DNA of 64,000 nt from Eledone cirrhosa (taxonomy: Eukaryota): assembly GCA_964016885.1 (NCBI GenBank), contig OZ024741.1:118482001-118546000 (forward strand), given 5' to 3'. The notes under the pieces were generated by a model, which saw only the letters and a program-made list of their open reading frames with translations, did not search any database and was not told the origin of the DNA. Shown here one piece after another: positions 10,901 to 54,400 of the stretch. The stretch's first letter is position 1. Every line of letters starts with the position of its first letter. The position numbers and the translations under genes are program-made.

Positions 10901-13814
10901 TCAAAATGTTGCCAGTCAGTAGGTTTGAATTGTTGCCACTCCAGCTTTAAATATAAATATTTTTACTCAAATCATTCAAAGATCTGCTGAGTAGTTGGGG
11001 AAAATTAAAAGGAACAAACAAACAAACAAACGTGTGTGTGTGCATACAAAAACACATATACACACACATTTTTGTGATTGTTCCATCTTCACAGATGATT
11101 GCCATCTCATTGTGTCCCCCCCCCCCCCCGATTCCATCACCATCAGTATTTTTCCTCCTATGCAAAAAAGCATACACCAGCATGGCCACACCAAGACCCT
11201 TGCTCCTTGACAAAGTTCCAACACAAGGCACTGTCAGTGAACCACATCCGCTCCTACTTATACTACACCTGCCGAGGTGAGGAAATTACAGAAGTGGAGG
11301 TATTTCATTGGAATGTATAATCATGACAGTTTTCTGACATGCCTGTCTAACTTCAGAACATGACAGACAACCTGTCTAACCCATGTAAACTTGGAAAATT
11401 GGTGGGAAACAGTGATGATGATGATACATACATATCATATATACATTTGTATGTATGATAGGATAAACCTGCAGGCGACTATCTCACTGGACTTACACAA
11501 AACATCAATACAAAATATATGGCACATTATAAATGTATGAGGTGTGACTTATACACAAGTATATACCATGAATAAGTACATTCATTTAATGGCTAAGTAG
11601 TGAGCTTTGTTACTCTGGTGATCCTATGAATGTGCAGGTGAAACTGCAGAATAAGGTTCACCCACTTAGTCCTAATAAATGAATATTTAAACTCTTCTTC
11701 AGTATTGAGTACTTTTTCTCGTGTCTGTCAATAATACTCAGATATATATATATATATATATATGATGATATATACACACACACTGTGAAAAACCTATATG
11801 TCTTATCTCACAAAACTTCAATACAAAATATATGGTACTTTGTAAATTCTATATGTAAAATGGAGGTATGTTTTTATATATACAGAAAAATACAATAATT
11901 TCTTTTTCCTTTTATTTCTCTGTCCATGTTTAGGAAAGTCCGATATTCAAAGTAGACTGGAGAGTGCTCTGCAAGACGTGAATGAAAAATACTTGGTACT
12001 AGAGGAGACTGAAAAAAATGCTGTGCGGACAGCATTAATTGAGGAACGGAGTAGATTTTGTATGTTTGTTACTTGTTTTAAGCCGTTTGTGGTAAGTTGC
12101 TTAATTTTATTTTTTTTTATTTTTGACATACATTTTTCTATTTAACAATCAAATCAAATGGGTATTATGTATGGTAGAGAGGACTCCTTATTCTTGCCAA
12201 GGACAACCTCTATATTACTGATGCAATGATAAAATGTAACCAGTACACTTTGTAAAGTGGTAGATATTAGGAAGAGCATCCAGCTGTAGAGACCATGCTA
12301 AAATTTGGAGTGTATAAACATGATATGGTTCCAAGGCCCATCTATGAGGACAGTAAGTCTGATTAACCCTTTAGCATTTTCATTACTCTATATTTGCTAT
12401 TGTATTTCCACAGTAAAGGCTTTATCTCACATAATATCCAATCTAAGAGATTTTGATATTATTTATTTTGAGAACAATTCCTTAACATAAGTATGAGCAG
12501 TCAGTTACAGCCAGTTTGAACAGAAAGAAGTGAAAGAATTTTGGCCGGATACAGCCAGTTTAAATGGTTAAGTACGGGCTTAGACTGTGACAACCCATCC
12601 AACCCATGTCAACATCGAAGGCAGACATAGAATGATGCTTTATATCACATCACTTCATAGTTTCTTTTATTGGAAGAATATCATGGTATCCTAACTCTTA
12701 TCTCGGTTTTTTAAGTGCTAGACAGAAATACCACAAAGTGTGCAAATAATGGAGCCTCTGCATAATTCTTTAACTTGTTTGAAATAGTTACCAAATTCCC
12801 CTCAAATCACATCCCTACTATCTTAGAAAAGAACACCTTGACTAATGTGGTTCCAGTACTTTACTGGCACTTTTTCGTCCTCCAGAAGTATGAAAAGCAT
12901 GGTTGACCTCGGTGGGATTTGAACTTAGAATGTAAAGGGCCTTAACTAAATGCTACTTAGCATTTTGTCTGATTCTCTAATAATTCTGCCAATCCACTGT
13001 CATATAGGATGAAAGGCAAAGTTGACCATGGCAAGATTTGAACTCTGAGAAAATACCAAGACATCATTAATCCAATGCCCTAATGCTTTGGCCTTCTCTG
13101 TTAATGATGATGATAATAATAATAATAATAATAATTGTTTCTACTTTTGGCACAAGGCCAGCAATTACCCAATGCATTACTGGTACTTTATTTTATCGAC
13201 CCCGTAAGGATGAAAGGCAAAGTTAACCTCGGAGGGATTTGAACTCAGATCATACAGGGAGGTAACTCTATGCTTCAAAGCATGGCATCCGACTCTCTAC
13301 CGATACTGCCATTCCACCACCTTAATAATAATAATAGTTTCTAATTTAGACACAAGACCAGCAATTTTGGGAGAGGGTAAAGTCGATTAAATCAACCCCA
13401 GTGTATTACTGGTGTTTTATTTTATTGCCCCATAAGGATGAAAGGCAAAGCTAACCTCGGCGGGATTTGAACTCAGATCGTAAAGGGTTGTAGCTCTATG
13501 CTGTAAAGCATGGTGTCTGATGCTCTACCAATGCTGCCAATCTACTGCCCTGATGATGAATTTGTATTCTTTTATTTAAGATTTTCGTTTTTTCATTTGT
13601 TTTTCTTTATTCTTTTTGTTGTTTTTCATCCACCAGGAATGGGAAATAAGTCTATTAACTGAGATTACACATTTAAAAGAAGTTATGGATAACCTAGCGA
13701 AACAATCAAGTGATCCTCACACATTGCCTGCCGCAAGTGAGCAAGTTATTTTAGATGTGAAGGGAGCTGACAGCAATGTCTGGGCATTCCAGGTGAGAAC
13801 ACTGAGGGAAAAAA

Positions 13815-13848
<34 letters not shown>

Positions 13849-14175
13849 CTTTTGGTCATTTTTGATACATTGAGGAATTTTTTTTTTTTAAGCTTCCACA
13901 ATGCTGATGATCTATAATCAATAATCGGATGTGTCGGGTAAGGTAACCCTGGAGGTTTTTGCCTGGTTTGATTACCACAGGCATTTCTGTCCACTTTTTT
14001 TCTGTCTCCAGAAGTATTTTACCCAGCTTATTCAAGTATTTTATAGTTCAACTACATTGCAGCAGCTTTTTTAAAAATCATATATTTTTTAACCAATTGT
14101 TTTGTTTTGTTTTTATTTTAATGTTCTTGTCATTGTTATGGTTGCGGTTATTTTTTTTTATTTTCTTGTTAATCG

Positions 14176-14210
<35 letters not shown>

Positions 14211-14428
14211 AGATTTAAAAAATTTGCATTACTTTGATAATTTTTTATCTTTTATTTTATTAAATATTCAACTGTTGTATTATTCAAACTATATTTCTTA
14301 ATTGATTTAGAGAATGAAATGTTAGCAGTTTAACTATTAAACTTTAAATTAACCCATTCAGCATAGTTTATATTCTAACATGTGTATGTGTGTACACATA
14401 CACACGTACACATACATACACACACATG

Positions 14429-14460
<32 letters not shown>

Positions 14461-17400
14461 ACACTCTCTCTCTCTCAATTTACACTCTCTCTCTCAATTT
14501 ATTCTCCCACTCTCAATTTACTCTCTCTAAATTTACACACTCTCTCAATTTACACTCTCACTCAATCTTCACACTCAATTCTCACTCAAACACTAATTTC
14601 TCACTCACACTCAATTCCCACTCTCTACTCTCATTCACATCAGTTTTCTCTCCTCTTTCACTCCTACCTTCTGGCTCTTTCTTTTCTCTTTCTTTTACTT
14701 CATCTCATTCTCTTTTCATTGTTTTTTTCTTTATATATAGATAACAGGGCTCAGCAACTTCTTTTAGTAATGGCCTGTGTATTATATCTTACAATCTGAA
14801 GTACTCAGAAAAAAACCTCAATGACCCACATGCATATTATATATCTTGCATATGAACATTTAAGAGGTCTACTATGTGTGTTCTATGGATGTAAACACCC
14901 TGTCTTCTTTCTGGATTGTCTTTACATCGTTTATTTCATGTGTTGTGGACCCACTTTTTTATTATTAACTAATTTCTCAATCAGTTTATCGGAAGTCTTT
15001 GCCCACACTACTATGACTTTATCAGTAGACCAGTACCTTTGTAGCTTTGTTAGACCTACCATGGTGTACATCCCCTCCACAAGACAGTCATTTCCACTTT
15101 CTGCTACTATGAGAGACAGTAGCTGGACCTTGCAGCAGCACACTTGCGCACCTATATAATTAGGCAGTGAACTTGTTCAACTTTGAATATTTGTTCCACA
15201 TTTCTGAGTTAAATCCTGCTGAGGTTCACATTGCCTTTCATCCTTTTAGAGTTAATAAAGTACCAGCCCAGAGCTGGTGCAGCCCTCTCTCCTTCCCATT
15301 GGATGGTCTGCATTAAAAGAGGAAGGTTCAAGACACTGTCCATGTCTACATGTGGCACCATGTGTACTTATAACACTTAGCAAAAACATGGTACATGCTA
15401 CCAAGTCATACTTGATTGCTAGTGACTTTTGAGGTCTCCAGCAATACAAATAGAATATTAACTCTTTAGCATTTGCATTACTCTATATACACTATATAAG
15501 GGCGATGAATTGGCAGTATCGGTAGAGGGTTGGACGCCATGCTTTCTTGCATAGCTACGTCCCTTTACAGTCTGAGTTCAAATCCCGTCAAGGTTATCTT
15601 TGCTTTTCATCCTTACGGGGTCAATAAAATAAAGTACCAGTAATTTACCTTGTGCCAAAAGTAGAAACAATTACTCTATATATACTGTTACTTCACATGA
15701 TATCAAATCTATGAGATTTTTATATTATCTATTTTGAGAACAATACCTTAATGTATGTGAAGCCAGTTACAGCTGGTTTGAACGAAAAGAGGTGAGAGAA
15801 TTCTGGCCAGATACAGCCGGTTTAAATACTAAAGGGTTAAGTATTAAAAATGCAATTACAAAGGTGTTGAAATGCTTGGAAATATTTAATTGTTCCATGT
15901 GTACTGCTGTTGTCTTCTAAAGTATTTTTTATACCTTCAACCTAGTTTTAAGCAAACTACAACACCCTTCTTATGCATGTTTGTGTGTGAAGTCCAAAAC
16001 TAACATGTTGAGGATGAGCAAGAGAAACTTGAAGACACACATGGGAAATTCTCACTCCTCAGCTGTTGAGTAGGTGTCTTTGTAGTGTCAAGTGCTTTAA
16101 ATAACAGTACTCCTCTTCCCCAAGACACCAATATATATATAAAGGAATATATACTGATATCAATTGAGAAACTATATATAGAACGCGTGGTTGAGTGGTT
16201 AGAGAAGTGGATTTGCAATCAAGAGATTGTGAGTTTGATTCCCGGACCAGGCAAGGCGTTATGTCCTTGAGCAAGACACTTTATTTTACGTTGCTTCTAC
16301 TGCCTGGATTTGCGACCGGTAGATAGTATTAGCGATTGGAAAGAAAAATGGAAACATTGTTTCCTTGGTCCATTTTGACAAGTTCCACCCCACTTGTTAA
16401 GCGAATGAGGTCTGGAATATTGTCAATCAACTGTTATATTGAATACTTAAATTGTAAAAAGATATACTTACTTTAGGAGGGTAAATTTATAATTCCTAAT
16501 TAGAAGGCCTTAGTATTTTATCATACCATCTTCAGGTAAGTTTTTTTACTTACTCTATTTCCCTTTGGGCCTACTAACTAGGAATATATCTTTTTACAGT
16601 TTAAGTGTTCTATGTACGTCTACTAAATCCAAGCAGTTTCTCAATTGATATTGGTATATATTCCTTTATATAGTTTAGACTTGTAAACTTGTAGGCACTG
16701 AACTAATGTTCGAGCTATTTTATTGAGAAACATAATCGGTATATATTTTTTATGTATCGATTTAAACTTAAATCATGATTATATATATAATATTAGTTGT
16801 GCTCTTATGTTGAAGTACAAGATATTTTATAAATTCTTTAGAAGTATTGAATGCTTTTTTTTTTTTTTTTTTTTTTATTCATGTCTCTCTCTCTCTCTCT
16901 CAAAAAAAATACTAGTTTCTTGGAATTTCTTCACCTTCCTATTTTTCTTTCTTTCCTTCCAACTTCATTTTTAAGACAACAAAGAATTTGGTAAGTATTC
17001 CTTCCTTAAAGGATTGGTAAGTGATTTGGTACCACAATCCTTCACTTCAATTCTTTGTTTTTTTATTATGTGTTTGTTTTTGTTTGTTTTGATTTATATT
17101 CATTTGTTTTGTTTGCTGTTTGCTAAAAAAAAATTATTTTGAAACCTCCTCTCTGCCCCCAAGTGTTAATATGTCAAATATATTTGTGGTTATTGCAGTG
17201 GCTTAACCCTTCCATTATCATATTTCTAATGAAAGACACTGCCTATGAGTTTCACAGAATTTTGAAAATAATCAAGAATTTCCAAATTCTTGATTATGCA
17301 GATTTAGTGAGATAAAATGCACATTTTCTATATTGTGTGTGTGTGTATATGTATATATATTTATATATATATATAAGAATAACACAGATCAACTATACAG

Positions 17401-19872
17401 TAGGGTTTATTCCAAGTATTAACAAATGTTTCATTGGTCCGGTGTGTTTAAAAACTGCTATCTGCAGTGTGTTGTGACAAGTGATTTTAAGTACAGTTTA
17501 CACTAACCACACACACACACACACACACACATACATACACAGTATGGAAAATGTGCATTTTATCTCACTAGACCTGCATAATAAAGAATTTGGAGAGATT
17601 TAGTAATATAGGTAACTTACTGATTATTAATGAGGTTTAGAATCTAACTTAACAAAGGTTCTTCCATAAAAACATGATGGAGGGTTTTAGATAGATACAA
17701 CGACTTCAGAACAAACAACTTTGTATCATAGAACCAGCGGTGATTTCAGGCAATATAATATCAAAAGGATTAAGCTAAACACTGGAAATATTAACTTCTC
17801 CATAAACATTTGGTTAAACTGTATAAAGAGTCATATTGTAATTAATAATCATTGTTGGTTCAATGTGTTTTGGTGAATAGATTAAAATATCTGTTAATAA
17901 TGTTATGAAAGTGAGATGGAGAGAGAAGAGAGATGGATTATACATCAGTTAGTTATAGAAACTGATGGATCTGCCATTAGTTTCAACAATGAGCAATTGT
18001 TTGTTTGATCAATTGACATCCAACTCATTAAATTAACTTGAAAGGAGTTCAGTATTCCAGAAACGTGTCCCCCATAACATAATTCTCTGACAGAATCAGC
18101 ATAACAAAAATGTGTGACAAGGCTGGACTTTTGAATTACAGATACATTCCATCTGACACTTCCAAATGTCTATTCAGTTTCCTTCAAAAGGCTTAGGTTG
18201 ATATAATAATGAAAATTGTATACATTGCTCACATGCACTACAACTCATCAAAGGTGCATGTATAGTACATAGAATAATGGACAAATGTCAGGAAAGTGAA
18301 CAGTGTAAGAGTCATGATATACACATAGATACATGCTAATAATAATAAAAAGGACAGTGTTAGATCTTCATTACATTTTCTTCAGCAACTCTGAGCATGA
18401 AAAATGTTTCTGAAAGTCATGGGAGCTGTACTGTTTTCTGACTTTGGAGGCATGCCAACATGTGTTAGACACATGAAATTCAAAAAGGTGTTCAGAGTTG
18501 TTGTTGGCAAGATGGTTAATAATTTTGTGGGTGTCTACCAAGTCAGTTGCCAGACATCGGAGCTTTAATGTATCCATGCCCAGGGAAGCAAGGCATTCAG
18601 AGAAAAATCCACATGCCCTAAATGTCCCTCAGTGGTATCAAACTCTGGACCTCATGATTATGAAGTCATCATCATCATCACCGTTTTACGTCCATTCTTC
18701 CATGCTAGCATGGGTTATGACGGGTTGTCCTGTTGTGGGCAGTGTCCAGTCGGTTGACCTTCTCTTGCTCATACGGGAAGTGGGCATCTTAACTCTTCTT
18801 ATAGACCTGCACTAAACTTCATTATTCATGTAAAAATAAAATCTGTTTAGAATAATGAACTGTGTATGTGTATCAATGTGTTTGTGTGTCTGTGTGTGTT
18901 GGTTGTATGTACACTAACATTAATTCTTAACAGCCTGTAATGATTTAGCAGAAAATATCTAAAAACAAGTATAATTCAAATGTTTGTAGTATCTTTATTA
19001 ATGGATAGGTTGTTGCAAAAATTTGCAGTATTAGAGTAAAGACTTTAATTTTTTTTTACATGATGCTGTCATAGTGCTGGTTTATACTTTTGTAGAATTT
19101 CTTGCCAGTGCGGTTTGATAAGGTACAAGAATCTAAGTCTTAAAAGATGTGTTAATTTCTTTCAAAATATAGCATGCTAAATAACTACTTTATATTTTTT
19201 TAATCTTTAAAATTTTGCTTGAGATGAAATTGAACTAATAACCCTGAATTACCAGATAGTAATGTTTTTCTAACCTCAGTTGAAAATGGCCTGAGTGGGG
19301 GCTTTTTGGCTTTCACTCATTTGAGAGGGACCGGTTTGGCAACCTTCACTCGTGTGAGAGGGACCGCTTTGGCAACTTTCACTCGTGTGAGAGGTACTGC
19401 TTTGGCAACCTTCACTCATGAGGACTGCTGCTTTGGCAACCTTCACTCATGTGAGAGAAGCCACTGTTCACCTTTATTTGTGAGAAAGGGGCATTTTGAT
19501 CACCTTTGTTCATGTAAATATGGCCATTTTGTTGACCTTTACTCTCTCACACACACACACTCATGTTTGTGTTTGTGCATGCTCACTCATAAGTAGCTGA
19601 GTATTCCAGACACTTGTACCCATAATATAATTCTCAGAATCAGTGTAATACTGCAATATTTCGTCTTCCACCAAAGTGTTATGATGCAGGATATCCTCCT
19701 ATAGGCCCCCACCACCATGTATATATTACTTAATTGACTGTACCTAATGTTATAGCCTAACTGTAACTTTACAGAACTATACCACCCACTGATGATTATT
19801 AATTCTGAATTATGAACTCTTTATTACACTATGTATATGTGTTTATGTATACATATCTGTGTGTGTGTGTTT

Positions 19873-19907
<35 letters not shown>

Positions 19908-22615
19908 CACCACCGATTAACATCCATTCTCCATGCTTGCTTGGGTTAGACAGGTCACCCACGTCATGAGACAAGTCTGGCCAGTTGGCCGCACCATACC
20001 TTGCTCAGACAGAACTGTAAATTTGGCTGGGAATTTTACAGCTGGATGCCCTTCCTAACACCAACTATGTTTACAGTGACACACACATACACACATATAT
20101 ATATATATACATATATATATTTGCTATAATACCACCCTTATCTTGCCATTGCTTTTGTTTTTGCTTTAAATGTTTATAATATTAACAAATTACTATCGAC
20201 TGTCTATAAATGTTGTTTTTGGTGTTATTTATTCTTTCTCCTTTTTATATCTAATACATTTGTCATATTATGGCCCCCATGATTACTTGGAATTATTTTT
20301 AGATTTTAGCCTTACTCTATAGAATTTACTAAAATTTGTAGACAGAATATTAACCATTCCATTACCACTCTTCAAATGAAAGACACTGTCCATGATGCCC
20401 AAACATTTTTGAAAATATTCCAGAATTTGGAAAGATTTTCTAACATAACTTTCTCATTATATTAAGCTAGTGTTAGGAACATAACTCAGAGGTTTTTACA
20501 TAAAATTATGATGGAGGGTTACTAAATAAATATAAACAATTTAAAATAAACAGCTCTTTGTTGTAGAAACAAGGTTGGTTTCGGACAGTTTGCTATCATA
20601 AGATTTAAAATAAAGTTTTGTATTATGGAACTGGTTTTGGTATATCAAAAAGGGTTACAATAAAAAAACAAATTTTTAATAAAAACTATTAGTAATTAGT
20701 CACACACAATTTCTTGATTTACCTAATGTTTTGGAGATTAACTTGAAGGTATTTAGATAAATATAAACCATTTAACCCTTCTATTACTGTATTTCTTATG
20801 AAAGGCGCTGCCTCTGATTTTGAAAATAATCAAGTATATGGAGTGATTTAGTAATATGACTAACTTATTTGTCTGGTATTTTGAATATAATAAAACTATG
20901 ATTTAATGCTTTTAAATAAATATAAACTCATTAAAGCAAACAGCTTTGAAACAGAACCAGTTGTGGTTTCAGGTTATTTGTATAAAAAAGACTAAAGATT
21001 TAGATTGTATCATCATCACAGTATCTTAAGTGAAAAATAGCTTTCTACAGAGAGAACCAACAGTGTTCTACAAAATAGAAAATGCATTCATTAAGAACAA
21101 TTCTGGGTTATACTCAATTTTTAGCCTAGACAAAGCCAGGAATCCTACTGGTTTTAAATAACATAGAAAGGGTTGGGATAATTCTGAGTTTGTCCTTTTT
21201 TTTGCTTTTTGTATATTTTTTATTGTGGAAATTTTAAGAATTTTATATATGTAAAGTAAGACTTATTGAACCTTTGGAGATGCCATGACATGGATGTATA
21301 TATATTTACATCTTGTAAATATATCTCAGTAACTAACTTTGCTATATGGTATGTGTTGCTTTTTTTCCTTCCCAGTAAACTAATTATTAATTTTTCATTT
21401 TTTGGTTAATATTTTTCTTATTGTATCGAGAAATGAATCTTTTGAAGTGTTGAAAATAATCTCTTATTTAATGTTTTTGTTTTCTATTTGAATAATAACA
21501 ATGTTCAAAAAACAATGTGTGATATGTATGTATCTTTATTAGAACAAATCACTCGACAGAATGGCAAATGTGTTACCCTGGAGAGCATAAAAAAAATATT
21601 TTTAAACAATGACTTTTATCATGAAATTCACCGAATTAGTGAAGAATTTGGGGGGATTTACTAAAATTATCAAATATTTCATTACTAAGGATTTACTAAA
21701 ATTATCAATTATTTCAATACTAAGACATAATAAAAACACAATATAAAAATGTTGGCAAATTGTAATTTAAATAGGACCTCTTTAACTCTTTCATTACCAT
21801 ATTAATGAATAATTTTGAGGGATTTACTGAAATTATTTCATTACTAAGATAGTAATTTAAGAAAAGGTTCTTAAAATTCTGTTTGATAATTTTAATTTAA
21901 ATAGACCTTTAAAACGAGGAGAGATTAGTTTCATCAACCAAAAGTCAATTTTGATCGTATTATATCAAGTGTTACACTTAAATATTAATCTAATCCCTCA
22001 ATTATCAGTTAGCTGTAGTAGATGTACTGAATAACTTATGTGAAATAAAACATTTTCTATGAATTGAAATTTCTCTAGTTGAAAAAAAATTGAAAGTTCA
22101 AGTTATTTTAGTTTAAATTATTTGGAAAACTTAAAATTCTCATGCTACTAAAATGATTAGTATTTGTTTTCTGTTTATTCTCATATACAAGGTGTCCCAA
22201 AAAACTGTATACACACTTTGATTACCTGTACAGACAATATTTATTAGAATACTGTTGAATCGTGTATACATTTTGGGGACACCCTGTGTGCGTGTGTGTG
22301 TGTGTGTGTGTGTATATACACACACATATACATACAGGGTGTATGTATGTATATATATATGGGTATTAGAGGTTCAAATTAATTGCGTCCATAAACAATA
22401 TGCCAAGATTAGCATTCGATGCTCGTGGGAGCAGAGTATCAATAATAATAATATATAAGGGAACACTTAGACGCAAGTCTACATGTGAACACATATCTTA
22501 GGAGCTTCTAACTCCAGAGTCGGGTTCGATCATTAATCAATCATTAATCGATCGTTCCTCGAACTGATCGACAGTAAAACATATTTAATATGTATGCAAC
22601 ACTAATTCTTTGTTC

Positions 22616-22654
<39 letters not shown>

Positions 22655-24142
22655 GATTCCATCTGTGTACATATTCTTCTATAGAATATGTATTTGGTAT
22701 ATATATACAATATACCGTGTTTCTTTTACAATATATGGCTCTTTCTCGCTCTCTATAAACATATATCTTTTAATTTGGTTTTATATATAACAGCTCCCTC
22801 AAGCACTGATGGTGATTATCGCTAAATATTGATGTTGCTTTGGTTATCAATATTAATATTATTGGGCACCCACTGAAGAATTATAAGAGCCCACTTGTAT
22901 AAGTATCTGTTGATCTTATACAAGCTTCTACATAATTTGGTATAATTTCACACAACTTGTAGAAATCTTATAATGAAACGAGTCGTCTGGGAAGTGATAT
23001 ATTTGATATATCTCATATGAAATGATACAGCCAATTATCCACACAATACAATATAGTTAGCACCCCGAACGTTTAATTGGGAATATACTCAGGTATTTCC
23101 TAATGTTTGTTGAGTGAGTTGGAATTTGGCCGGAGTATCGCTATTAGCTTTCTCCATTTATTTATATATATATATAGAGAGAGAGAGAAAGAGAGATTCT
23201 ACAGGACTAGAACTGTTTCATTCTTTAGAAATCATCAGGAATCTCTTCCTGTTGATTTCTAAAGAATGAAACAGTTCTAGTCCTGTAGAATCTCATCTAT
23301 ATTAAAACTTTTATACTTTGCTATGTATTGAGTACCTTACTTACTGTGGTTACCTCTGATTCAACCCGGAATAACTTACCTATATATATACATACACACA
23401 TTTTATTATGGTTAAGTGATGAGTCTTGTTACTCTGAATCATCAGAGACTCTACTTAGGTATTGAGTACTCACACAGATACATATATAACGTAAATGGTT
23501 CAGAAAATATTCATTTACTTGTGCGTGTGAGGGGAGTGGTGGTGGTCACATGGAATATTTTAAAATGTGCAGTAAAGTTTTAATTGTGGATTTTAACCCA
23601 ATTCTTAAAGAGTTACATAAAACTATATATTATATGGGTTAACATTTAGAATAATTTGAGATCTTTATAAACAATACAATAATGGTGTAGTAGATGTATA
23701 ATAATGTTGAAACAGTCTTGTCTTTGAAATGACATTTCCAGGGGAAAAGGGGGAGAAAAGTCATCTATCGCACCAGAATTTTTTGAATTTCCTATTCTTC
23801 ATTTTCAGAACCAATGTATTCTTCAGAAATCTTCTTGTATATATTTGTATATAAACATATATAAATATGTGTGTGTGTGTGTATAAATATATATATATAG
23901 GTATATATATATATATATACGATATTAACAAATGGAAACTATATTTATAAAACCATATTTATTTCATTATACATATTTCAAGGACACCAAGTTAAATTAT
24001 GGTGTCCTTGAAATATGTATAATGAAATAAATATAGTTTCCATTTGTTAATATCGTATGTTTACTCCAAATACTTGTTGAGTGCTTTATATCAGTTATAA
24101 AAATATTTGCTTGTTGTATCCCAACAATTTAAATAGAACTTT

Positions 24143-24187
<45 letters not shown>

Positions 24188-24616
24188 AAGTGTGTCTGGA
24201 AATAAGTTTTGTTTTTTTAATGTTGAACATTTTTTTCTGGTTCATGTTTTTTTTCCATTAAAAGCTCATTACGAACTATATCATGAAGCTATATATTGTC
24301 TAATTAAAAGGGGTTTATAACCTAATGCAATCATACACAAGCCATTTAAACATATTCTTAACTCCAACACACATCATGCTAAAAGGATGCCTGAAGGGGT
24401 ATTTTGTTTTTGAGCATCTCTGCTGCTATCTGCAGATTGTAAACTTATTTTTATGAGTGATGGGTTTTTGTTTTGTTTTGTTTCGTTTGTTTGTTTGTTT
24501 GTTGTTTTGTTTTTTTTTACATCTCTCTTGTAATTGTCACTGTAATTGTTAAAAAGCATTTTTTTTTTAAATACACTTACTGTCTTGCTTTTTGGATTCA
24601 CTATGTACACTACACG

Positions 24617-24647
<31 letters not shown>

Positions 24648-25069
24648 CAGTGGCAACTCTAGCTCATGAATGTTACTCAGACTGTGACAGATCAAAGGCA
24701 CACACTATGGTTAGTTTTTCAAACGTTTTGACTCGTGGCTTTTATTTATTTCAATTGGCTAAATTTTATGAGCCCAACCTAGCCTCATAAAATTTCATTC
24801 ATATATCATGAAAGTGAAAAACAAAATCTATATTTTCTTGAGAATTATTATAGTCTTAATAGACCCAGAGAGAATTTGTTAACGCGAGTCGTGTCTTTTG
24901 GATTCAAGAAAATATCATAATTAGTGTTCTGGGGCATTTTTTATTTGGTTTGAAATAGATGGGTTTGACAGTTGAGCTACCAATGCTAAGCCTCATTGTT
25001 GGAGTCACCACTGATATATATCTATGTAGATATGTGTATATATATGTAGACGTATATATATATATGTAG

Positions 25070-25117
<48 letters not shown>

Positions 25118-25121
25118 AGAT

Positions 25122-25170
<49 letters not shown>

Positions 25171-27265
25171 GTATTAATGTTTAAACGAAAATGTTATATG
25201 CTTTTGTTGTGCACATACTCTTCTGCTTCTTATATTATTTTGCATTCCTTGAAATGTTCCATCATTAAAGTGTGTGCTGTATCTACCATTATATAGAATT
25301 TTAAACTAAAACGTTAAACAGACATATGCATTTGGCTAAAAAAAAGCAGAGGCTTTAAGTAAAAAATATATTTACTTTTTATGCTATGAATTTCAATACA
25401 TCTTTCAGTTTAATGTCGCTAGCATATATACGATACTGAATCTTTGAAATGATCTTCGAAATAACGATAGCTTTTTTGTTTATATATAAAGGTTTTATTA
25501 TCAATATTAATACTATTGCTTTGTGGCATATAGTTATGTCCCTTTATGTTCTGAGATAAAATCATGTCGAGGTTTGCTTTGCCTTTCATCCTTACGGCGC
25601 CGATAAAATAAAGTACCAGTAATGCGTAAGGGTCAATTTAATTGGTCTTGTGCCTAAATCATTATTATTACTATTGTTAGAGTTCATTGTGTTTCTTTTT
25701 GCAGGATAATGTTTCTAAACTTGTTATATTATCTTGTACAAAGAAGCTAGCTGTATACTACTATAATGGTCGTATTTTCTATTAACTTCTTCATATGGGT
25801 TTGTTGATAATTAAGGTAGTGATTTTAGTCATATGTTCAACATGGCATTCAATATTGTTTTGGATTTTGGGTTCAAGAGTTATCAGTCTCTAACATGGAT
25901 TTGAAATAAGAAAAGTTAGGATTAATTAGAAAAGTTTGGATTAATTTTCTATGTCAACATTTGCTATGTATGAATGAATATATATATATATATATATATA
26001 TTAGAAAGTGAGGTTTTTTTACAAAATGAAAATAAAAACGAGGTGTCCTACACGAGTGAAAGTATAAGGAAAAAAGATGAAATGGAAAATGCAACTGGAG
26101 TCTTTTTTTTATAAAAATATATATTTATTTGGTTCCTTTACCGGTTTCGCAGTTCTTCTGCTTTTCAAAAGTAGAATTGAGGTGGAGGGTTTGTGGTTTT
26201 ATATATATATTCACACATACACAGCAGATGCACAATGGCTTGTACAATAGAATCAATTTGAACATGAAATTAAGAGATGAATTATCATCATCATTCTGTT
26301 AAAGATTAGTTATTCCTTTTCTGTTAGAACCTTGTCATATTTGGCATGACTCTATTAAGTTGACCTGTCGTTAGAAATGGTCCAGATTTTTCTGATCTCA
26401 CATATGTTACATGAAACCCAAGATATTATTTTGAAGACAGTTGCTTCTGATAGAACTCTCTGGAAGGTGTGTCTGAGGACTCTACCCCCACAACCCTCTC
26501 AGGAATAAATGGGTGAAGAAAAGATGTGTGTATATGTATGTAAATATATATACATACACACATATATATGAAGTATAACTTAAGACTGATCAATTTATTA
26601 CTAGTAAATCAATTTGATCTGTATATATCGTATGGTATTTGAACAAATCAAGTGTTTTTGGTCCTCGTTATTTATCACTCACTCATTTAACTGTTTCAAA
26701 AAACCTTTTTCTTAATAAATTTTCATCATAGCCTCCTCCTTCCCCTCCTCATGTCCTCCTCTCTTCTCCATTATTAACATTGTTGTTTTAGTTAGACAGA
26801 AACTCTTCTTTTGGCCTCTAACTTCCACTACTTCTACTTCCACCCCACCCCTGTTTTATTGTTTGTGATTGAATCCGTGCACTAATCCGGGACCCTCCCC
26901 CATCATATTGTTTCAGACACCACCAAGCTCCCCAAGTTCACTCGGTTCCCGGAAATCCAGTATGTGTAGCAACAGTAGCATAAACAGCTCATCCGATTCT
27001 TCTGCCAAATCATACTCCCCAACACACCATCACTACCGGTTCCGTAGTCCCTCACAGGTCAGCAGTGTAAGTTTATGCTCCAAGCAATCTGTACAGGTAA
27101 AATATGTATGGTTTAACACCTTGTTTTGTTTTGTTTTTTGTTTTTTTTTGTTTTTTTACCTTTCGTTTCCTTATCACAGCTAAAATCTATTACCAGGTAA
27201 TATTTTTTTTCAAAACAATTTTCTATAGTTAGCATGATCCCTCCCCAAGCTTGGATCCTTTGTCT

Positions 27266-27299
<34 letters not shown>

Positions 27300-30200
27300 T
27301 AGCCTTTTCCCCTAACCATTAACCCTCCTTCCTCTGTTATTTCCCTACCCTTTAGCTTGCAATTATATTTACTATCGTGCTAACATCCACTCTCTGTATC
27401 ATCAAACACTTGTACAATTTTTTTAATTTTTTTTTATATATTGTCTTTGTAATAGTTTAAACAAATAGTGTTTCTTATTGTTGTATTTCATGAGGGTTGT
27501 GTTGTAATCAAAACACATGCACCTGATGAGTTTCACTTCAGTTTGGTAATTAATCCATCAATCAGTTGGTTAATCAACTAATTAATTGCCAAACTCCTTT
27601 TATCCCACCTTATCAATAACTCTTGCCCTCTGTGACTTTTTCTCCACACTAACTCCATCATTTTGTCTCTCATTGATTAATTGATTAATAACCTGATTAA
27701 TAATAACAATAGAAGTGAAATGAAACTCAACTGATGCATTTGACTGGTCACTTGAGCCTCCTAAAATATAACAATATCTATTTCAACACGATTTCATATC
27801 AAGAATCTTGCATAATAAATACAGAATCAGTGTTTTCTTATTTTTTTACTTTCTCCAAATTGTTGTCAAACGTCTGATATAAATATTGTTGTCAAACATC
27901 TGATAAAACAAACATTGCTAGTAAACATTTTGTTTGATATAAACATTGCTAGTAAACATTTTGTTTGGTATAAATATAATTAGTAAACTTTTTGTTTGAT
28001 ATATACAATGCTAGTAAACATTGTTTGATATATATACATTGCTAGTAAAAGTCTAATATAAACAAGTTGCAAACATTTGTTTGATATAAACAAATATAGC
28101 TTGCAAACATTTGTTTGATATAAATATACATTGCTAGTAAACATTTGTTTGATATAAACAAATAGTTAGTAAACATTTGTTTTATGTAAAAAAAACAGCT
28201 AGTAAACATGTTTAATGTAAACAAACATAGCTTGCGAACATTTGTTTGATATAAACATTAATAAACATTTGTTTGATGTAAACAAACAGCTTGTAAACAT
28301 TTGTTTGATGTAAACAAACATAGCTAGTAAACATTTGTTTGATATAAATAAACATAATTAGTAAATATTTGTTTGATATAAATAAACATAATTAGTAAAT
28401 ATTTGTTTAATATAAACAAAGATAGCTTGTAAACATTTGTTTAATGCTATCAAACATAGCTTTTATGTCAGACAACTACTTTAGATGTTTCCCTATACAC
28501 TGCCTAAGGAAAATAGCTTGTGGTTGTTCTTTATTTTTAAATTATAAAATGTAGGAAAATCTATATAATTGAATTGGGGGGGGTTATAGCCATTCAACAA
28601 CAAACGACAGTAAAGAACCGTTGACTTAGGAAGAATTAGGGAAAATGTGAAATGTAGTCATTCCCAACACAAATGATTATAGTAATAGTTAATCACTATA
28701 AACAATAGTTGAGATAGACTATTATTATGGCCATTTCTACATTGAGATGACTATATTTCAAATATGAAATATTGGCAATTTAAGGAGGAGTAAAGCTGAA
28801 AAAAACTTGGCTGAACGATGTGATTTATTCCATTGGCTGACCCATTCTACATCGACATGATATTACTGCAGACCTCGTGCCTTGCTGCAGATCAGTATAT
28901 CATCTTCCCATGTCACCTTCACAATAAAAGTGCCTGGAACAACTATATATATATATATAATCATCATCACCGTATATATATATATATGGAGGGGGGGGGG
29001 GGGTCATTCCATCTCTTCCTTCTTCATAAATAACAATATCCTCACTAACCTACATACAGAGCCTTAAATAATATAATTACAGAAATTGAGAATACATAGG
29101 CGGGTGTATGTATATGCACACACACGCACACACACTCTGAATGCATCAGCATCTCTACTAGATGTATTTTAGTGTGTGTATGTATGTATGTATGTATGTG
29201 TCTTTATATGTATTAAAATACATACTATGGGGGGGGGGGTTTAATGTATGTCATTTACTACTGATGGAACATTTGCTATTTCATCTGTGTTTTCTTTTGA
29301 TTTTCTTATGCTTATTTCTTGTAAACTCATATATTTCTTAGTCTCTTCTAACCACTGTCATTGTCAGACCATTTCTGTTCCAAGGGAAAATACTATGAAG
29401 TACTCGCTGCACTGCAGTGTATAGCAAGTGAAATAATTGATACACTGCAGTATATAGCCTGTCAAGTGCTTGATATACTGCAGTGTATAGCCAGTCAAGT
29501 GCTTGATATACTGCAGTGTATAGCCAGTCAAGTGCTTGATATACTGCAGTGTATAGCCAGTCAAGTGCTTGATATACTGCAGTGTATAGCCAGTCAAATA
29601 CTTGATATACTGCAGTGTATAGCCAGTCAAGTGCTTGATATACTGCAGTGTATAGCCAGTCAAATACTTGATATACTATACTACAGTGTATAGTCTGTCA
29701 AGTGTGATACATTGCAGTGTATAGCCAGTCAAATACTATTTTTTGTGCATTCCAAAAGAAAATACAATCAAGTACGTGAAGGGGCATGACTTAGTGGTTA
29801 GGGTGTTTAACTCGCAATCATAAGGCCATGGGTTCAATTACTGGACAGGGTGGTATGTTGTGTTCTTGAGCATAACACTTCATTTCATCATTGCTTTAAA
29901 TGGTAGGACTAAGGCCCTTATCATTAAAGCACCCAAGAAACCTCCTATGAGAAGCACCCTTGAAAGAAGCCAACTAAGCCATAATGTGTGAGCTGTGAAT
30001 TTTTTTTTCTTTACACTGCAGCACATAGCCAATCAAATGCAGTGATGGTGGTGATATACCTAAATAAACACCATTCAGCAGTGACAATCTATTGCCATGC
30101 CATTTGCTTATGTTGGTGTTCTAAGGATAACACAATTTCACCTTACATAAAGAATCCAACATAAAACTCTCTCTCTCTCCCTCTCGTTCAACTTCAACTT

Positions 30201-32215
30201 ATTACATATATATATACACACGTTTGTATGCATATAACAAAAAATTGTAACACGTTTTCTGACAGTAAATTTTATTCAGGTGTAAGGAACATTGAATATA
30301 TGTCGGTGTTAATTTTTCAATCATATACACACACTTATATATACCCAGCATTTATATACATATACTAATAATTTCACACTTATATACCTGCACTCGTATA
30401 CATATACTTATATACCCAGCACTTATATACATATGCTTATATACATACGCTTATATACACACGGTTATATACACACGGTTATATACACGCTTATATACAC
30501 ACGCTTATATACACACATTTATATACATACGCTTATATACACACGCTTATATACACACGCTTATATACACACGCTTATATACACACGCTTATACACACAC
30601 TTATATACACACACTTATATACACACGCTTATATACACACGCTTATATACACACGCTTATATACACACACTTATATACACACACTTATATACACACACTT
30701 ATATACACACACTTATATACTTGCACTTGTATATGTATACAAACTTACACACACATGCACACAATGATACACAGTCACACAAACACACAGATATGTGCAT
30801 GTACATTTATGACAAAAAAACAAAAACCAGTTCTCCCAAAATCTATTGAATCTGTGTTATATTTGACATCTGAGAGGTGTTGCTATTAAATTAAGGAGAA
30901 CAAACCTTGTTTATCATTCTAACATAGCACACCTACCAATTTGTTTATATATTTCTTTCTATACATCCCTTTGTTCTGTATTATAGCTGCTATTATTTGT
31001 CAATAGGTTCTCTACAAATGAAACAATTCAGCAATTTGGTTCCAATTTATAGTTGTTCATTTTTTTTTTTTTTTTTTTTTTCATATCGGCAATACATAAA
31101 ATCACTCATGACTTCCAGTTATAAATCTGGTTTCATTCCTCTGTAAAAACTATATCATCAACATCAGCATTTTATCTCCACTTTTCCATGCTTGCATGAG
31201 TTGTGTGGGTCTTTTCCAGCACAGCCTTCCTCCACTTGTTGCATTCCTTGGCCATCTCCTCTGTGAGGTTGTGTTTTTTTTGTTTTTTGTTTTTTGTTTT
31301 TTGTTGTTTTTTTTTAGATCATGTCTCACCACTTCTGCCCAGGTCTTTTGCAGTCTTCCTCTACTGCAGCTTCCTTCAATTAGGATCTTTGGCATTTCTT
31401 CACCCAATGATCATCATCCATCCACACTACATGTCCATACCATCACATCTTGCCTCTTGCAGACTACATCTGATTCCACTTATATCTTAAATCCAGCTTT
31501 ACTCTCAACTCATCTGTGCATATATTGTGAAATGCATGACTTAGTAAGTTACAGGACTGACCTCAAGATTGTAAGGTTGTGAGTTCGATTCCCAGTTTCA
31601 GTTGTACATTGTGTCCTTGAACAAGACACTTGACTTTACATTCCTCCAGTTCACTCAGCTGGAAAAAATTATTTGTGATGACACAAGTGTTAAGCTATAT
31701 TGGTCTTTCCCTTTCCCTTGGACAACATCAGTGGTATGGAGAGGGGAAAGTTGTATGTATGGACAACTGGTTTTCCATAAGTCTGTGCCACATTGATGAA
31801 CTTTCCAGTCATGACTAAAGGGGATGCATTTCTTTATAATATGCAACACACTTTATATGTCTTGTCAATGGTTCATTTTCGTTAGAATCATGAAACATTT
31901 TCTGAAGCCTTGAAAAATTGATATATTTATTCTGAGTTGCTCTCCTTTAATACTACACTCTTCTGATTCCAAGTCTTGTTCTTTGTATCCAAACAAAAAC
32001 TAAAATAAACCTTTTCGTCCATAAAGAGGTATTGAAACTGGAGCATCTATCATTCAAATAGTCAAGTAGCCTCCTATGAGATGTAACCTTGTATGAGGCT
32101 AGCTAAACACTTATAATAGCATAAAGAAGTTCCAATTATAGTTAGTTTTTTTTTAATCAAAGGGCAGTGAGATATCCTCATCTCCCTTTATATTTTTATT
32201 TATCTATGCACACTC

Positions 32216-51400: not shown

Positions 51401-54400
51401 TATGTGTGTGTATGTATGTGTCTAGGCTATATAAGGGAGTACTGAGATAACTAGATCAAAACCTTTAATATATGTGTGTGTATTCTACATACATACTTTT
51501 CTGCTATAAGCAGTTATGAAAATATTTCTAAAGATGTGATAAGTCATTATTAGAGAAGACATACAAATTAATTACAGTAATCAAAGTACAGGTAGAACAG
51601 TGGAGCACTGAGAAGAGTTTTTTTTTTTTTTAGATTCTTGGTTAACTGGTAAAACAAAAGAAAATATAGCTCAGTGGGTAGGGGGTAATGTTGTATAAAC
51701 TCTCGGATATCTAAGGCTAATATGAAGTTTGATAAATTTGAAAGATAGAAACTAAAGAGATGCTATCAAACCCAAGCTGTTGGTCTGACTGATGTTAAAA
51801 CTAGGAAATACATCAAAATCAGCCTATTAAAAAAACAAGAAACACATAATTGGTACTTTTTTTTTTTCCATTTTAATTTTTGTCTTTTCTATCTCTTCTC
51901 ATAAATAGCCTCTTTTTTTTATTTAGTCATCATAGGGCAGTGGATTGCAGTATCGGTAGAGCGTCGAACAACATGCTTCACGGCATAGTTATATCTGTTT
52001 ACATTATGAGTTGCAAACCTGCTGAGGTTAGTTTAGCCATTCAGCCATATGGGGTCAATAAAATAATGTACCAGTAACACACTGGGGTTGATTTAATCAA
52101 TTTTCCTCTCCCCCAAAACTGTTGACCTTATGCCTAAGTCAGAAACTATCATTTAGTCACCATTATTTTATGGCTACTTTCTATTCTGGCATGGGTTGAA
52201 TGGCTCATCATGGTTCATGTCAATTCTTACTTGGAATTACTGATCTCCTAGAAAAATCAGAGGACCACATATTACTGATACGATCCCAATTTTGGCTTGG
52301 TTTTCTAGTTGGATGCTCTTCCTAACACCAACCACATTACACAGTGTACTAGGTGCAATTTATCATTGCACAAACTCTAGAGAAGTGATGGCTATTTATG
52401 GTCATAATTTGTTTGCTTAACCCTTTAGCATTCAAAGCGACAAAAACCGACAAGATTATGTCCCCTTTCATTTATTCAAACCGACATTTAATACCACACG
52501 GAGATTTCCTTCTAAAAATAAACATTGACATCATCGAAATCTCGTCAATTCGAGATTACGCGCGAAAATTAACTCTTAGTATAGTTAAAGAACTTGCGAT
52601 AACACGTGTTTTTAATGTTGAAAGTGTAACATGGCTTCCGAAAGTAGCGACAACGAATTTGATGGTTTTACGTCCGACGACATTCGAGATCAAAAAGAAA
52701 CAGAAGATAATATCAGTGATTTATCTTCAAACGAATCAGATATATTTATTTCTGATATATCTGATAATGATGATAGTTACTTTGAAAGTGAAAGAGAAGA
52801 TTTGACTGACACCATTGAAAAAACAGCAATGTGGTTGAAAGAAACATCGATACATGTTTCGGATTTTACTGAAAATATTGGACCACAACACACATTACCA
52901 CCCGAATCTAAAGCACTGAATTATTATTTTTTATTTATACCACAATCTTTCTTCGAAGTTGTGGCAAATCGCTATGCACAACAACAAATTTCTAATATCG
53001 GAAAACCCGATCTGTTATGGCGTCCGACAGATTCTGCCGAAATGAAATGTTTTTTACCATAAATATTATGTTTGGTATTAAACAATTTCTACGACTGTGG
53101 AATTATTGGAGTACTGATATAAGGTTTGGTGACCCTTATATATCTAGTATTATGGCAAAAACGAGATTCATTAAATTAAACCAGTATTTGCATCTGGTTG
53201 ATACTTCAAATGCCCCTGGTAGAAATGAATTAAATTACGACCCACTGTACAAAGTACGACCATTAATTGAAATATTGTCAGAAAAATTTAAAAGTGTGTA
53301 TAAACTTATATATTGGGAACTTTCTGTTACGTAATTTTACACCGTACATTTACAGAGTACATTGCCAATATTATTTTCACTGGTGAAAAGGTTTTATACA
53401 TTTTTTTCAATGAAAATATTTTATACATTTTTTTCAATGAAAATATTTGCCTGGAATGTAGAGAAAGACTAAAACCGTGTACTGATTACACCTGCATTTT
53501 TAATTAATTCACCTGTTCAGAAAACTGCTAGAATTGATGGAAATCAGCATCTAGGTCATTATTGGATTTTTTTGCAACAAATCTAACAGATAAGGCAGAT
53601 AAAGTTTTAATTTTTGTGTTTATCTATAAAGTTATTACTTTTACACCTGTTAATTAATTTCACCTGCCCATAAAAGTCAAATTTAACAAAAAAAAATCAG
53701 GCAAAAATATATAATTGTATATTATAGTTATTTAAACATCTACTGACAAAATTTCAAGTCTGCACATAGAAAATTAAAGTAATTACAAACAAGTAAAATT
53801 GATAACCCTCTTGAGTATAATTAGGTGAAAATAATGCGAATAGATGAACATGACATTTGACAATTCAATGTGAATGCTAAAGGGTTAAAGGATAGGGTGT
53901 TTGTAAGGTTTCGAGTTTGATTTCCAATTCCAAGACACTTTATTTCATGTTGCTTCAGTCCACTCAGATGGTAAAAATGAGTTGTACTTGTGTTTCAAAG
54001 AGCCAGCCTTACCACACACTGTCATGCTGAATTTTTTTCTTAGAACTATGTTAAGGGTAGATGTGTCTGTGGAATGCTCAGCCACTTGCGCATTAATTTC
54101 ATGAGTAGGCTGCCTCATCAATCAAACAACAAAAATACTCACCACTGTGACCAATGAAAGTGTCACCAACACAACATGGTCATGTTACAAAATTTGATGA
54201 TCCCAAAACAGTTAAATCTCTAAAGCTTACTATATACATATTATTTATCAGTTTTGGTTATTAATAAACTGTTCTGGTTCTAATTGGTTGTGCCGTCTTT
54301 TGAAGAGAATTTCAAATGTTATCTTGAATGTTCTGCCACTAACTAGTTGGTGTGGTTTATATACATATTTATTTTTATACATACGTGTGTATATATATAT

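Follow-up and report, generated by a model that had tools for sequence, protein, structure and literature searches.

The window analysed here is a stretch of 64,000 nucleotides of Eledone cirrhosa contig OZ024741.1, which harbours an MTSS1/MIM-like gene. An upstream exon (11927-12091) of this gene has matches to the Pfam IMD domain and to PDB 2D1L ('Metastasis suppressor protein 1', E 1e-18). One of the introns contains, in sense orientation, a type I hammerhead motif with a branched stem II (Table 1). In a long-stem-II scan, run without a shuffle control, the window had no other type I hammerhead on its plus strand, and the minus strand had none. A sequence-only reading had described the parts of the motif, and every one of them was confirmed in place. 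Its account of a type I hammerhead with a multibranched stem II stands, but its view of the motif as a feature of the MTSS1 intron does not: the window copy is one young copy among thousands, identical to another at 359 of 368 bases. The surrounding non-coding block of about 530 bp is no single unit and falls apart into the repeat proper (only ~22791-23167) and flank (22653-22782).

Table 1. Parts of the hammerhead, the repeat copy that carries it and the host intron (window coordinates)
Feature	Position	Strand	Basis and remarks
Stem I, 5' strand CCCA	22869-22872	+	Partner 22988-22991; outer pair C-G in 4/14 and U-A in 9/14 representatives
Catalytic core CTGAAGA (CUGANGA)	22873-22879	+	N7 is A here, U in other subfamilies
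Stem II, 5' strand ATTATAAGA	22880-22888	+	Two-sided change in 3/9 pairs; first pair non-standard in 8/14 representatives
Stem II, 3' strand TCTTATAAT	22966-22974	+	Partner 22880-22888; 95 nt enclosed
Inner hairpin A, CTTGTATAAG (22894-22903) / CTTATACAAG (22915-22924)	22894-22924	+	10 bp; two-sided change in 5/10 pairs
Inner hairpin B, TTCTACA (22926-22932) / TGTAGAA (22958-22964)	22926-22964	+	7 bp plus weak extension
Core GAAA	22975-22978	+	Sequence
Stem III ACGAGTCGT	22978-22986	+	Sequence
GAAA, self-complementary stem III ACGAGUCGU and C17	22975-22987	+	C17 at 22987; predicted scissile bond 22987|22988
Stem I, 3' strand TGGG (UGGG)	22988-22991	+	Sequence, representatives
GGGC, pseudoknot 5' strand (predicted)	22864-22867	+	Partner 22889-22892; 92.9% of cells paired, no two-sided change
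GCCC multiloop junction strand, pseudoknot 3' strand (predicted)	22889-22892	+	Sequence, family P
5'-truncated repeat copy, family A (last ~370 nt and short AT tail)	22791-23167	+	359/368 identity to a natural full unit; 5' junction placed to within ~3 nt
Fixed 3' end (…TTTCTCC) and AT-rich tail equal to the next unit's start, running into (TA)n	23141-23167	+	Putative priming site
Host intron, MTSS1/MIM-like gene, 13,124 nt, GT-AG, phase 0	13793-26916	+	Exon matches

The branched fold and its conservation

The core, CUGANGA / GAAA / UH at a three-helix junction, and the ends in stem I are those of a type I hammerhead, and stems I and II as well as the inner hairpins are backed by covariation. 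Folding by itself is weak evidence; the 141-nt stretch folds with a z-score of -1.56, and 15 of 200 shuffles fold equally well. In an isolated 131-nt RNA, pair probabilities are 0.87-1.0 for stem II, 0.64-0.97 for stem I and 0.03-0.04 for stem III; those of stems I and II drop to 0.16-0.35 in a 261-nt context and to ~0.02 in a 529-nt context. The minimum free energy (MFE) structure contains stem II and the inner hairpins, and the complete hammerhead fold lies 1.5 kcal/mol above it; the circular MFE structure of the repeat unit, which is given no weight here, does not keep the active fold. Stem III (ACGAGUCGU) is favoured as a homoduplex (-9.6 kcal/mol) over a hairpin (0.0 kcal/mol). As had been anticipated, the motif is hard for motif searches: Rfam gives no match at the gathering threshold or at E<=10, which is expected given a stem II domain of 95 nt.

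Comparison among copies is more informative. The collected loci yielded 135 distinct hammerheads, which form 21 clusters at 93% identity; 14 representatives were aligned, from the 11 clusters with at least two members and from three of the ten singletons, with the window copy standing for the largest cluster. Two-sided changes occur in 28 cells and at 10 of the 37 pairs, namely one in stem I, three in stem II, five in hairpin A and one (of seven) in hairpin B, where 98% of cells are paired. Across the 14 representatives 94.6% of cells are paired, compared with 30-50% in slid controls. None of 500 shuffles reached the covariation cell count and four reached the pair count, counts that are not probabilities because the 14 representatives are related; a measure of 'further pair types' was not raised (448 of 500 shuffles). 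RNAalifold returned the same fold from the alignment, unprompted. The expectation that homologous copies retain the core and the branch helices is thereby borne out, the inner hairpins being kept by compensatory changes.

The core is conserved across subfamilies that are only ~70% alike. Among its fixed positions only N7 (A/U) and H17 (C/A/U) vary between representatives; the pattern searches that supplied the copies were blind to G17. The non-standard first pair of stem II is often U-U, and a U10.1-U11.1 mismatch is tolerated in pseudoknotted hammerheads (PMC3088659). Stem III varies, yet stays self-complementary in five families, with homoduplex energies of -9.6 to -14.7 kcal/mol and no stable hairpin, which suggests a dimer; its core pairs are invariant in A1, and the fourth pair changes from A-U to G-C in subfamily D. 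GGGC and GCCC are both present in 94 of the 135 distinct copies, which were not chosen for them, and also in the old family P. As no compensatory change is seen among the 14 representatives, the pseudoknot between them remains a prediction.

Family P extends the comparison further back. Its copies are 79-86% alike and ~57% alike to family A; the layout is the same with different helix sequences, and the fold of hairpin B is less consistent. In members of P and the P-like families (L252-L271, L399-L421), an A is left unpaired ahead of GAAA or the first pair of stem II is a mismatch, and a tandem spacing of 696 nt is found in these families at G000:C2:152815335 and 152816031. A pattern for short-stem hammerheads gave 13 matches and 10 control hits; these 13 are mostly other families of Penelope-like elements (PLEs) with ordinary hammerheads, and a short-stem ancestor was discarded on this ground. 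The sole short-stem copy of the branched lineage resembles an internal deletion, so that the branched form is the one that was amplified.

A dispersed non-coding repeat of about 700 nt

Exact long-stem-II cores number 1,316 genome-wide (520 with CTGAAGA and 796 with CTGATGA), far in excess of the reversed-pattern controls (1 and 0, respectively), and the motif is therefore not a chance occurrence. Exact 3'-end patterns have 593 and 1,092 matches in the 3.0-Gb genome, with no hits for the controls. A 141-nt query gave 1,571 first-look candidates, and the 40 that were scored are all 97-100% identical. The sequence common to 30 loci corresponds to window positions 22788-23176, an extent present in most of the 29 other loci, and continues upstream into a unit of ~698 nt. 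Six natural units measure 689-772 nt, with 31-35% GC and longest stop-free frames of 58-86 aa; in none of these six is there the ORF for reverse transcriptase (RT) and GIY-YIG of an autonomous PLE. At the level of the motif, a natural hammerhead can thus bear a branched stem II of 95 nt, and for this reason short-loop motif searches and Rfam undercount such elements, of which more than 1,300 intact cores occur here.

Copies of the repeat have a fixed 3' end, followed by a short tail identical to the beginning of the next unit. Within 40 nt past the terminal 3' end, alternating TA occurs in 81 of 83 copies of family A and in 83 of 85 of family B/C (164/168 in total); the background at random window positions is 8.5%. 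Among the 172 sampled insertions the 5' ends are ragged. Of these insertions, 37 are longer than one unit; the longest spans ~2.1 units, and the sample holds no long arrays. One head-to-head inverted pair was seen (L304/L305). Two complete hammerheads in one insertion were found at few sampled loci (e.g. L028, L136, L321 and L373) and not in the window; these four loci and L140 also show a feature of non-LTR retrozymes that is absent from the window. Overall, the anatomy of the repeat is that of a Penelope-like element or non-LTR retrozyme. The fixed 3' end with its tail, 5' truncation, partial tandems, the single inverted copy and the insertion bias to microsatellite or AT-rich DNA are traits of non-autonomous PLEs, and non-coding units in head-to-tail order, each with one type I hammerhead, are a trait of non-LTR retrozymes.

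Several further arrangements were noted around the repeat. At L175:760-1810 a subfamily C copy lies inside the TA-rich start of a subfamily B unit, which suggests that copies insert into each other's tail. Around unit position ~59 (e.g. L028:1853), a part absent from the window copy, a splice-donor-like AG|GTATGA is present in 37 of 44 occurrences in families A and B (their loci overlap), and no spliced copy is apparent; a 5'-UTR intron has been reported in PLEs. Directly downstream of the element in the window lies a near-perfect inverted repeat (23193-23294, 94% self-match), to which sequence in L004, L015 and L019 is related, and fold-back inverted stretches occur in L026 and L149.

5' ends at the predicted cut site

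Insertions were sampled by their 3' end only, in genome order. For family A, the first 100 of the 593 matches gave 94 fetched loci, and 85 were left after removal of six duplicates and three off-pattern 3' ends; in three of the family A copies the 5' end was shifted by eye to outside the test interval. For family B/C, the first 100 of the 1,092 matches gave 90 loci, and 87 were left after removal of a duplicate, an off-pattern copy and a copy ending inside the anchor. Between -1 and +16 of the predicted cut lie 24 of the 85 family A ends (24 of 88 with three matches known to cross the hammerhead, which were not re-fetched), against 2.5 expected. This test interval had been chosen after seeing family A, and the sequence downstream of the cut differs in B/C, which makes B/C the real test: here 20 of 87 ends fall in the interval against 2.6 expected (Poisson P ~1e-11). 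Pooled, the count is 44 of 172 against 5.1 expected, or 5.6 after adjustment for alternating-AT microhomology. The neighbouring 18-nt windows hold three and seven ends, and a similar end rate is found elsewhere only near one full unit length, where very few copies are at risk.

Five ends (L116, L145, L366, L375 and L384, the last with one shared T) coincide with the bond itself, and none falls between -3 and -15. The L145 insertion has 33 nt of another part of the unit fused precisely to the cut site, in what looks like a template jump. In family A, 17 of the 24 ends are on ATATAT at +9, where target and element match, and most of those in family B/C are found from +4 to +16; either trimming of ends or microhomology therefore has to be assumed. 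Since about a quarter of the sampled copies begin at the predicted cut site, self-cutting in the germ line is likely, and the accumulation of 5' ends there probably preserves a fossil record of cleavage in vivo. We regard as likely a reading in which the window carries a 5'-truncated copy of a non-coding ~700-nt repeat that a PLE enzyme copies, with the hammerhead cutting a minority of its germ-line templates.

A classical non-LTR retrozyme cycle is a possible but clearly less probable explanation. Two hammerheads would excise the 698-nt monomer, RtcB would ligate it and RT would roll round the circle, with short copies derived from unligated monomers. Circles have been demonstrated for the retrozymes of coral, mussel and axolotl (PMC7229834). 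In the present repeat, RT crosses the cut site in three quarters of its passes, and the few insertions with two complete hammerheads would be of the required kind. Repeats within one insertion belong to the same subfamily and have some rare variants in common, an observation that suits a twice-read circle no less than a linear tandem. Upstream-versus-downstream differences, as from a diverged tandem master, were not consistent after duplicate loci had been removed; this likeness within insertions, without a systematic positional difference, keeps the circle model (PMC7229834) viable. However, a closed circle offers RT no end on the second lap, yet seven of 19 second passes terminate at the site. 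First passes end there at a similar rate (37 of 155), a result that favours partly cut linear tandems, or jumps of RT from one cut monomer to another, over a pure circle. The lack of long arrays in the sample and a unit exceeding the 170-400 nt of reported circles also speak against the circle. Among the second passes of family A that crossed the cut, five of six (L057, L070, L081, L083 and L099) ended 19-46 nt further on, at a total of ~900 nt, though the numbers are small.

It is unlikely that the ribozyme is inactive in vivo and that the pile-up reflects a stall of RT where it meets the folded domain from the 3' side, a transcription start there or AT microhomology. Most ends do lie at +4 to +16 in AT-rich stretches, stem III is unstable in the monomer, and an anole PLE has been reported to have no RNA-seq reads ending at its hammerhead site (PMC11167929). 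Against a structural stall, the five exact ends include the entire stem I 3' strand and stop at the bond, and the edges of the stronger stem II and hairpins just upstream have ends at background rates, which makes a stall less likely. Microhomology fares no better: an identical ATATAT 10 nt downstream has three ends compared with 17, and the excess persists after the microhomology adjustment and recurs in subfamilies with other downstream sequence. A transcription start at that very base is possible. An inactive ribozyme would sit poorly with a core kept across diverged subfamilies.

The distribution of genomic 5' ends over thousands of copies offers a readout of germ-line cleavage from the genome alone and is usable for any PLE or retrozyme family. 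Both the cutting in vivo and the purpose of Penelope-type hammerheads have been stated to be unclear (PMC8557442, PMC4209133).

A model for copying and its relation to known elements

In the preferred reading, copying by a PLE enzyme with partial cleavage of its templates, tandem copies would be transcribed, and a PLE RT-GIY-YIG protein would nick (TA)n DNA and begin reverse transcription within the RNA, at a priming point ~170 nt downstream of the hammerhead. The Poseidon PLE protein nicks AT-rich DNA and primes reverse transcription inside its RNA in vitro, and its products have an AT tail (PMC11167929); such an internal start explains the tail. The hammerhead would be cut in roughly one of four encounters, probably as a dimer via the palindromic stem III or with the help of protein. 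On cut RNA, RT would run off the new 5' end and leave a dead copy of ~170 nt; on uncut RNA, or after an RT jump over the cut, read-through would give copies of the window type and copies longer than one unit. The MTSS1 intron would be merely one landing site. The predicted GGGC/GCCC pseudoknot would replace the usual contact between loops 1 and 2, and the inner hairpins would therefore point away from the core.

Dependence on a dimer or on protein has been reported for metazoan PLE hammerheads of this kind (PMC4209133, PMC11167929). The Poseidon PLE hammerhead is protein-assisted and dispensable in vitro, the main substrate being unprocessed RNA (PMC11167929). Speaking against cleavage, of nine Xenopus retrozyme dimers one cleaved in vitro and eight did not (bioRxiv 10.64898/2026.07.22.740005). 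A broader proposal, which we put forward tentatively, is that of an old and recently active ribozyme-retroelement lineage with a four-way stem II closed by a pseudoknot, in which copies record cleavage, RT crosses the cut by a jump or on a circle, and the inner hairpins serve as a module for protein binding or for gating cleavage.

That the repeat is mobilised by an RT of the LINE type, and not by a Penelope-like protein, appears improbable. A PLE partner with matching ends was not found, and 5' truncation fits LINE-type priming equally well. On the other hand, the repeat shows known PLE features (PMC8557442, PMC4209133): partial tandems, the tail from the next unit, (TA)n targets, an inverted 5' partner and, close to its 3' end, a type I hammerhead. 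PLE GIY-YIG-like sequence is abundant in the genome (22,600 first-look candidates). In the search for the autonomous partner, the sequence upstream of 244 long-hammerhead stretches gave PLE-like hits that were sporadic in both distance and strand, a long hammerhead was missing downstream of all 29 other GIY-YIG loci, and no coding PLE with a homologous pLTR was present among the loci examined, which cover part of the genome's PLEs. Two candidates were set aside. The GC-rich PLE beside L003 and the GIY-YIG remnant at L232, a separate PLE and the one promising case, have a hammerhead-like motif and a 3' end of their own, and TA lies between each of them and the repeat; they are therefore mere neighbours. 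Among the PLE families that carry ordinary short hammerheads, several run out in (TA)n; none was linked to the long hammerhead, and the 3' end of the repeat is unlike those of the short-hammerhead families seen. At L061:6780-9901, on the minus strand (G000:C3), a C-rich, broken Penelope-like element with an RT and an ordinary short hammerhead directly follows a family A copy, with TA in between.

The idea of a host-relevant ribozyme that cuts MTSS1 pre-mRNA and alters its expression starts from an intact core in sense orientation within a 13.1-kb intron, and it is very improbable, the hammerhead being a lone one with no partner in the window, in one of thousands of near-identical young copies, and bearing no mark of selection. 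With so many copies, the sense orientation needs no gene-specific explanation. Intronic cuts often leave splicing intact. It is possible that the window hammerhead cuts the pre-mRNA, and any such effect would be incidental, because poor cutting is to be expected of a lone hammerhead whose stem III has 3 bp. The finding tells little about MTSS1.

The class to which the element belongs is already known; what appears to be new is the branched, probably pseudoknotted stem II and the footprint in the 5' ends. A search covering mostly open literature and main texts found no published report of the element, the branched stem II or the footprint; supplements list hammerhead variants and longer-spaced 'half-core' cases, which may bear on this. 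Metazoan non-LTR retrozymes (PMC7229834; bioRxiv 10.64898/2026.07.22.740005), which have been argued to derive from PLE pLTRs (bioRxiv 10.64898/2026.07.22.740005), resemble the repeat in their non-coding, low-GC head-to-tail unit with one type I hammerhead and in their co-occurrence with PLEs, and its unit length lies within the 51-972 bp range given in that preprint. In contrast to them, the repeat is dispersed, with insertions of 0.2-2 units and no arrays in the sample, is known here from genomic DNA alone, measures ~700 nt against circles of 170-400 nt, and has a stem II formed by a 95-nt multiloop. With PLE pLTR hammerheads (min-HHR; PMC4209133, PMC8557442, PMC11167929) it shares a short stem I, a long stem II and a palindromic stem III, together with 5' truncation, partial tandems, the tail and AT-rich or (TA)n targets; unlike them, it lacks an RT/GIY-YIG ORF, and it carries two additional hairpins as well as a predicted pseudoknot. 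Short-stem PLE hammerheads of the ordinary type occur separately in the same genome. Pseudoknotted hammerheads (Perreault et al. 2011, PMC3088659) have a paired contact between the stem I and stem II regions, predicted here, and the U10.1-U11.1 mismatch found in several subfamilies of the repeat. They differ in that the partner strand of the repeat is a junction of the multibranch loop, a branched stem II not being described in the relevant passages of that paper (PMC3088659).

Elsewhere in the window, the same gene region contains a remnant of a Pfam DDE_Tnp_1_7 transposase on the plus strand (52996-53331, E 8e-15), and the next intron region holds minisatellite arrays at 27910-28461, 29411-29732 and 30323-30720, with units of 34, 33 and 14 nt, respectively.
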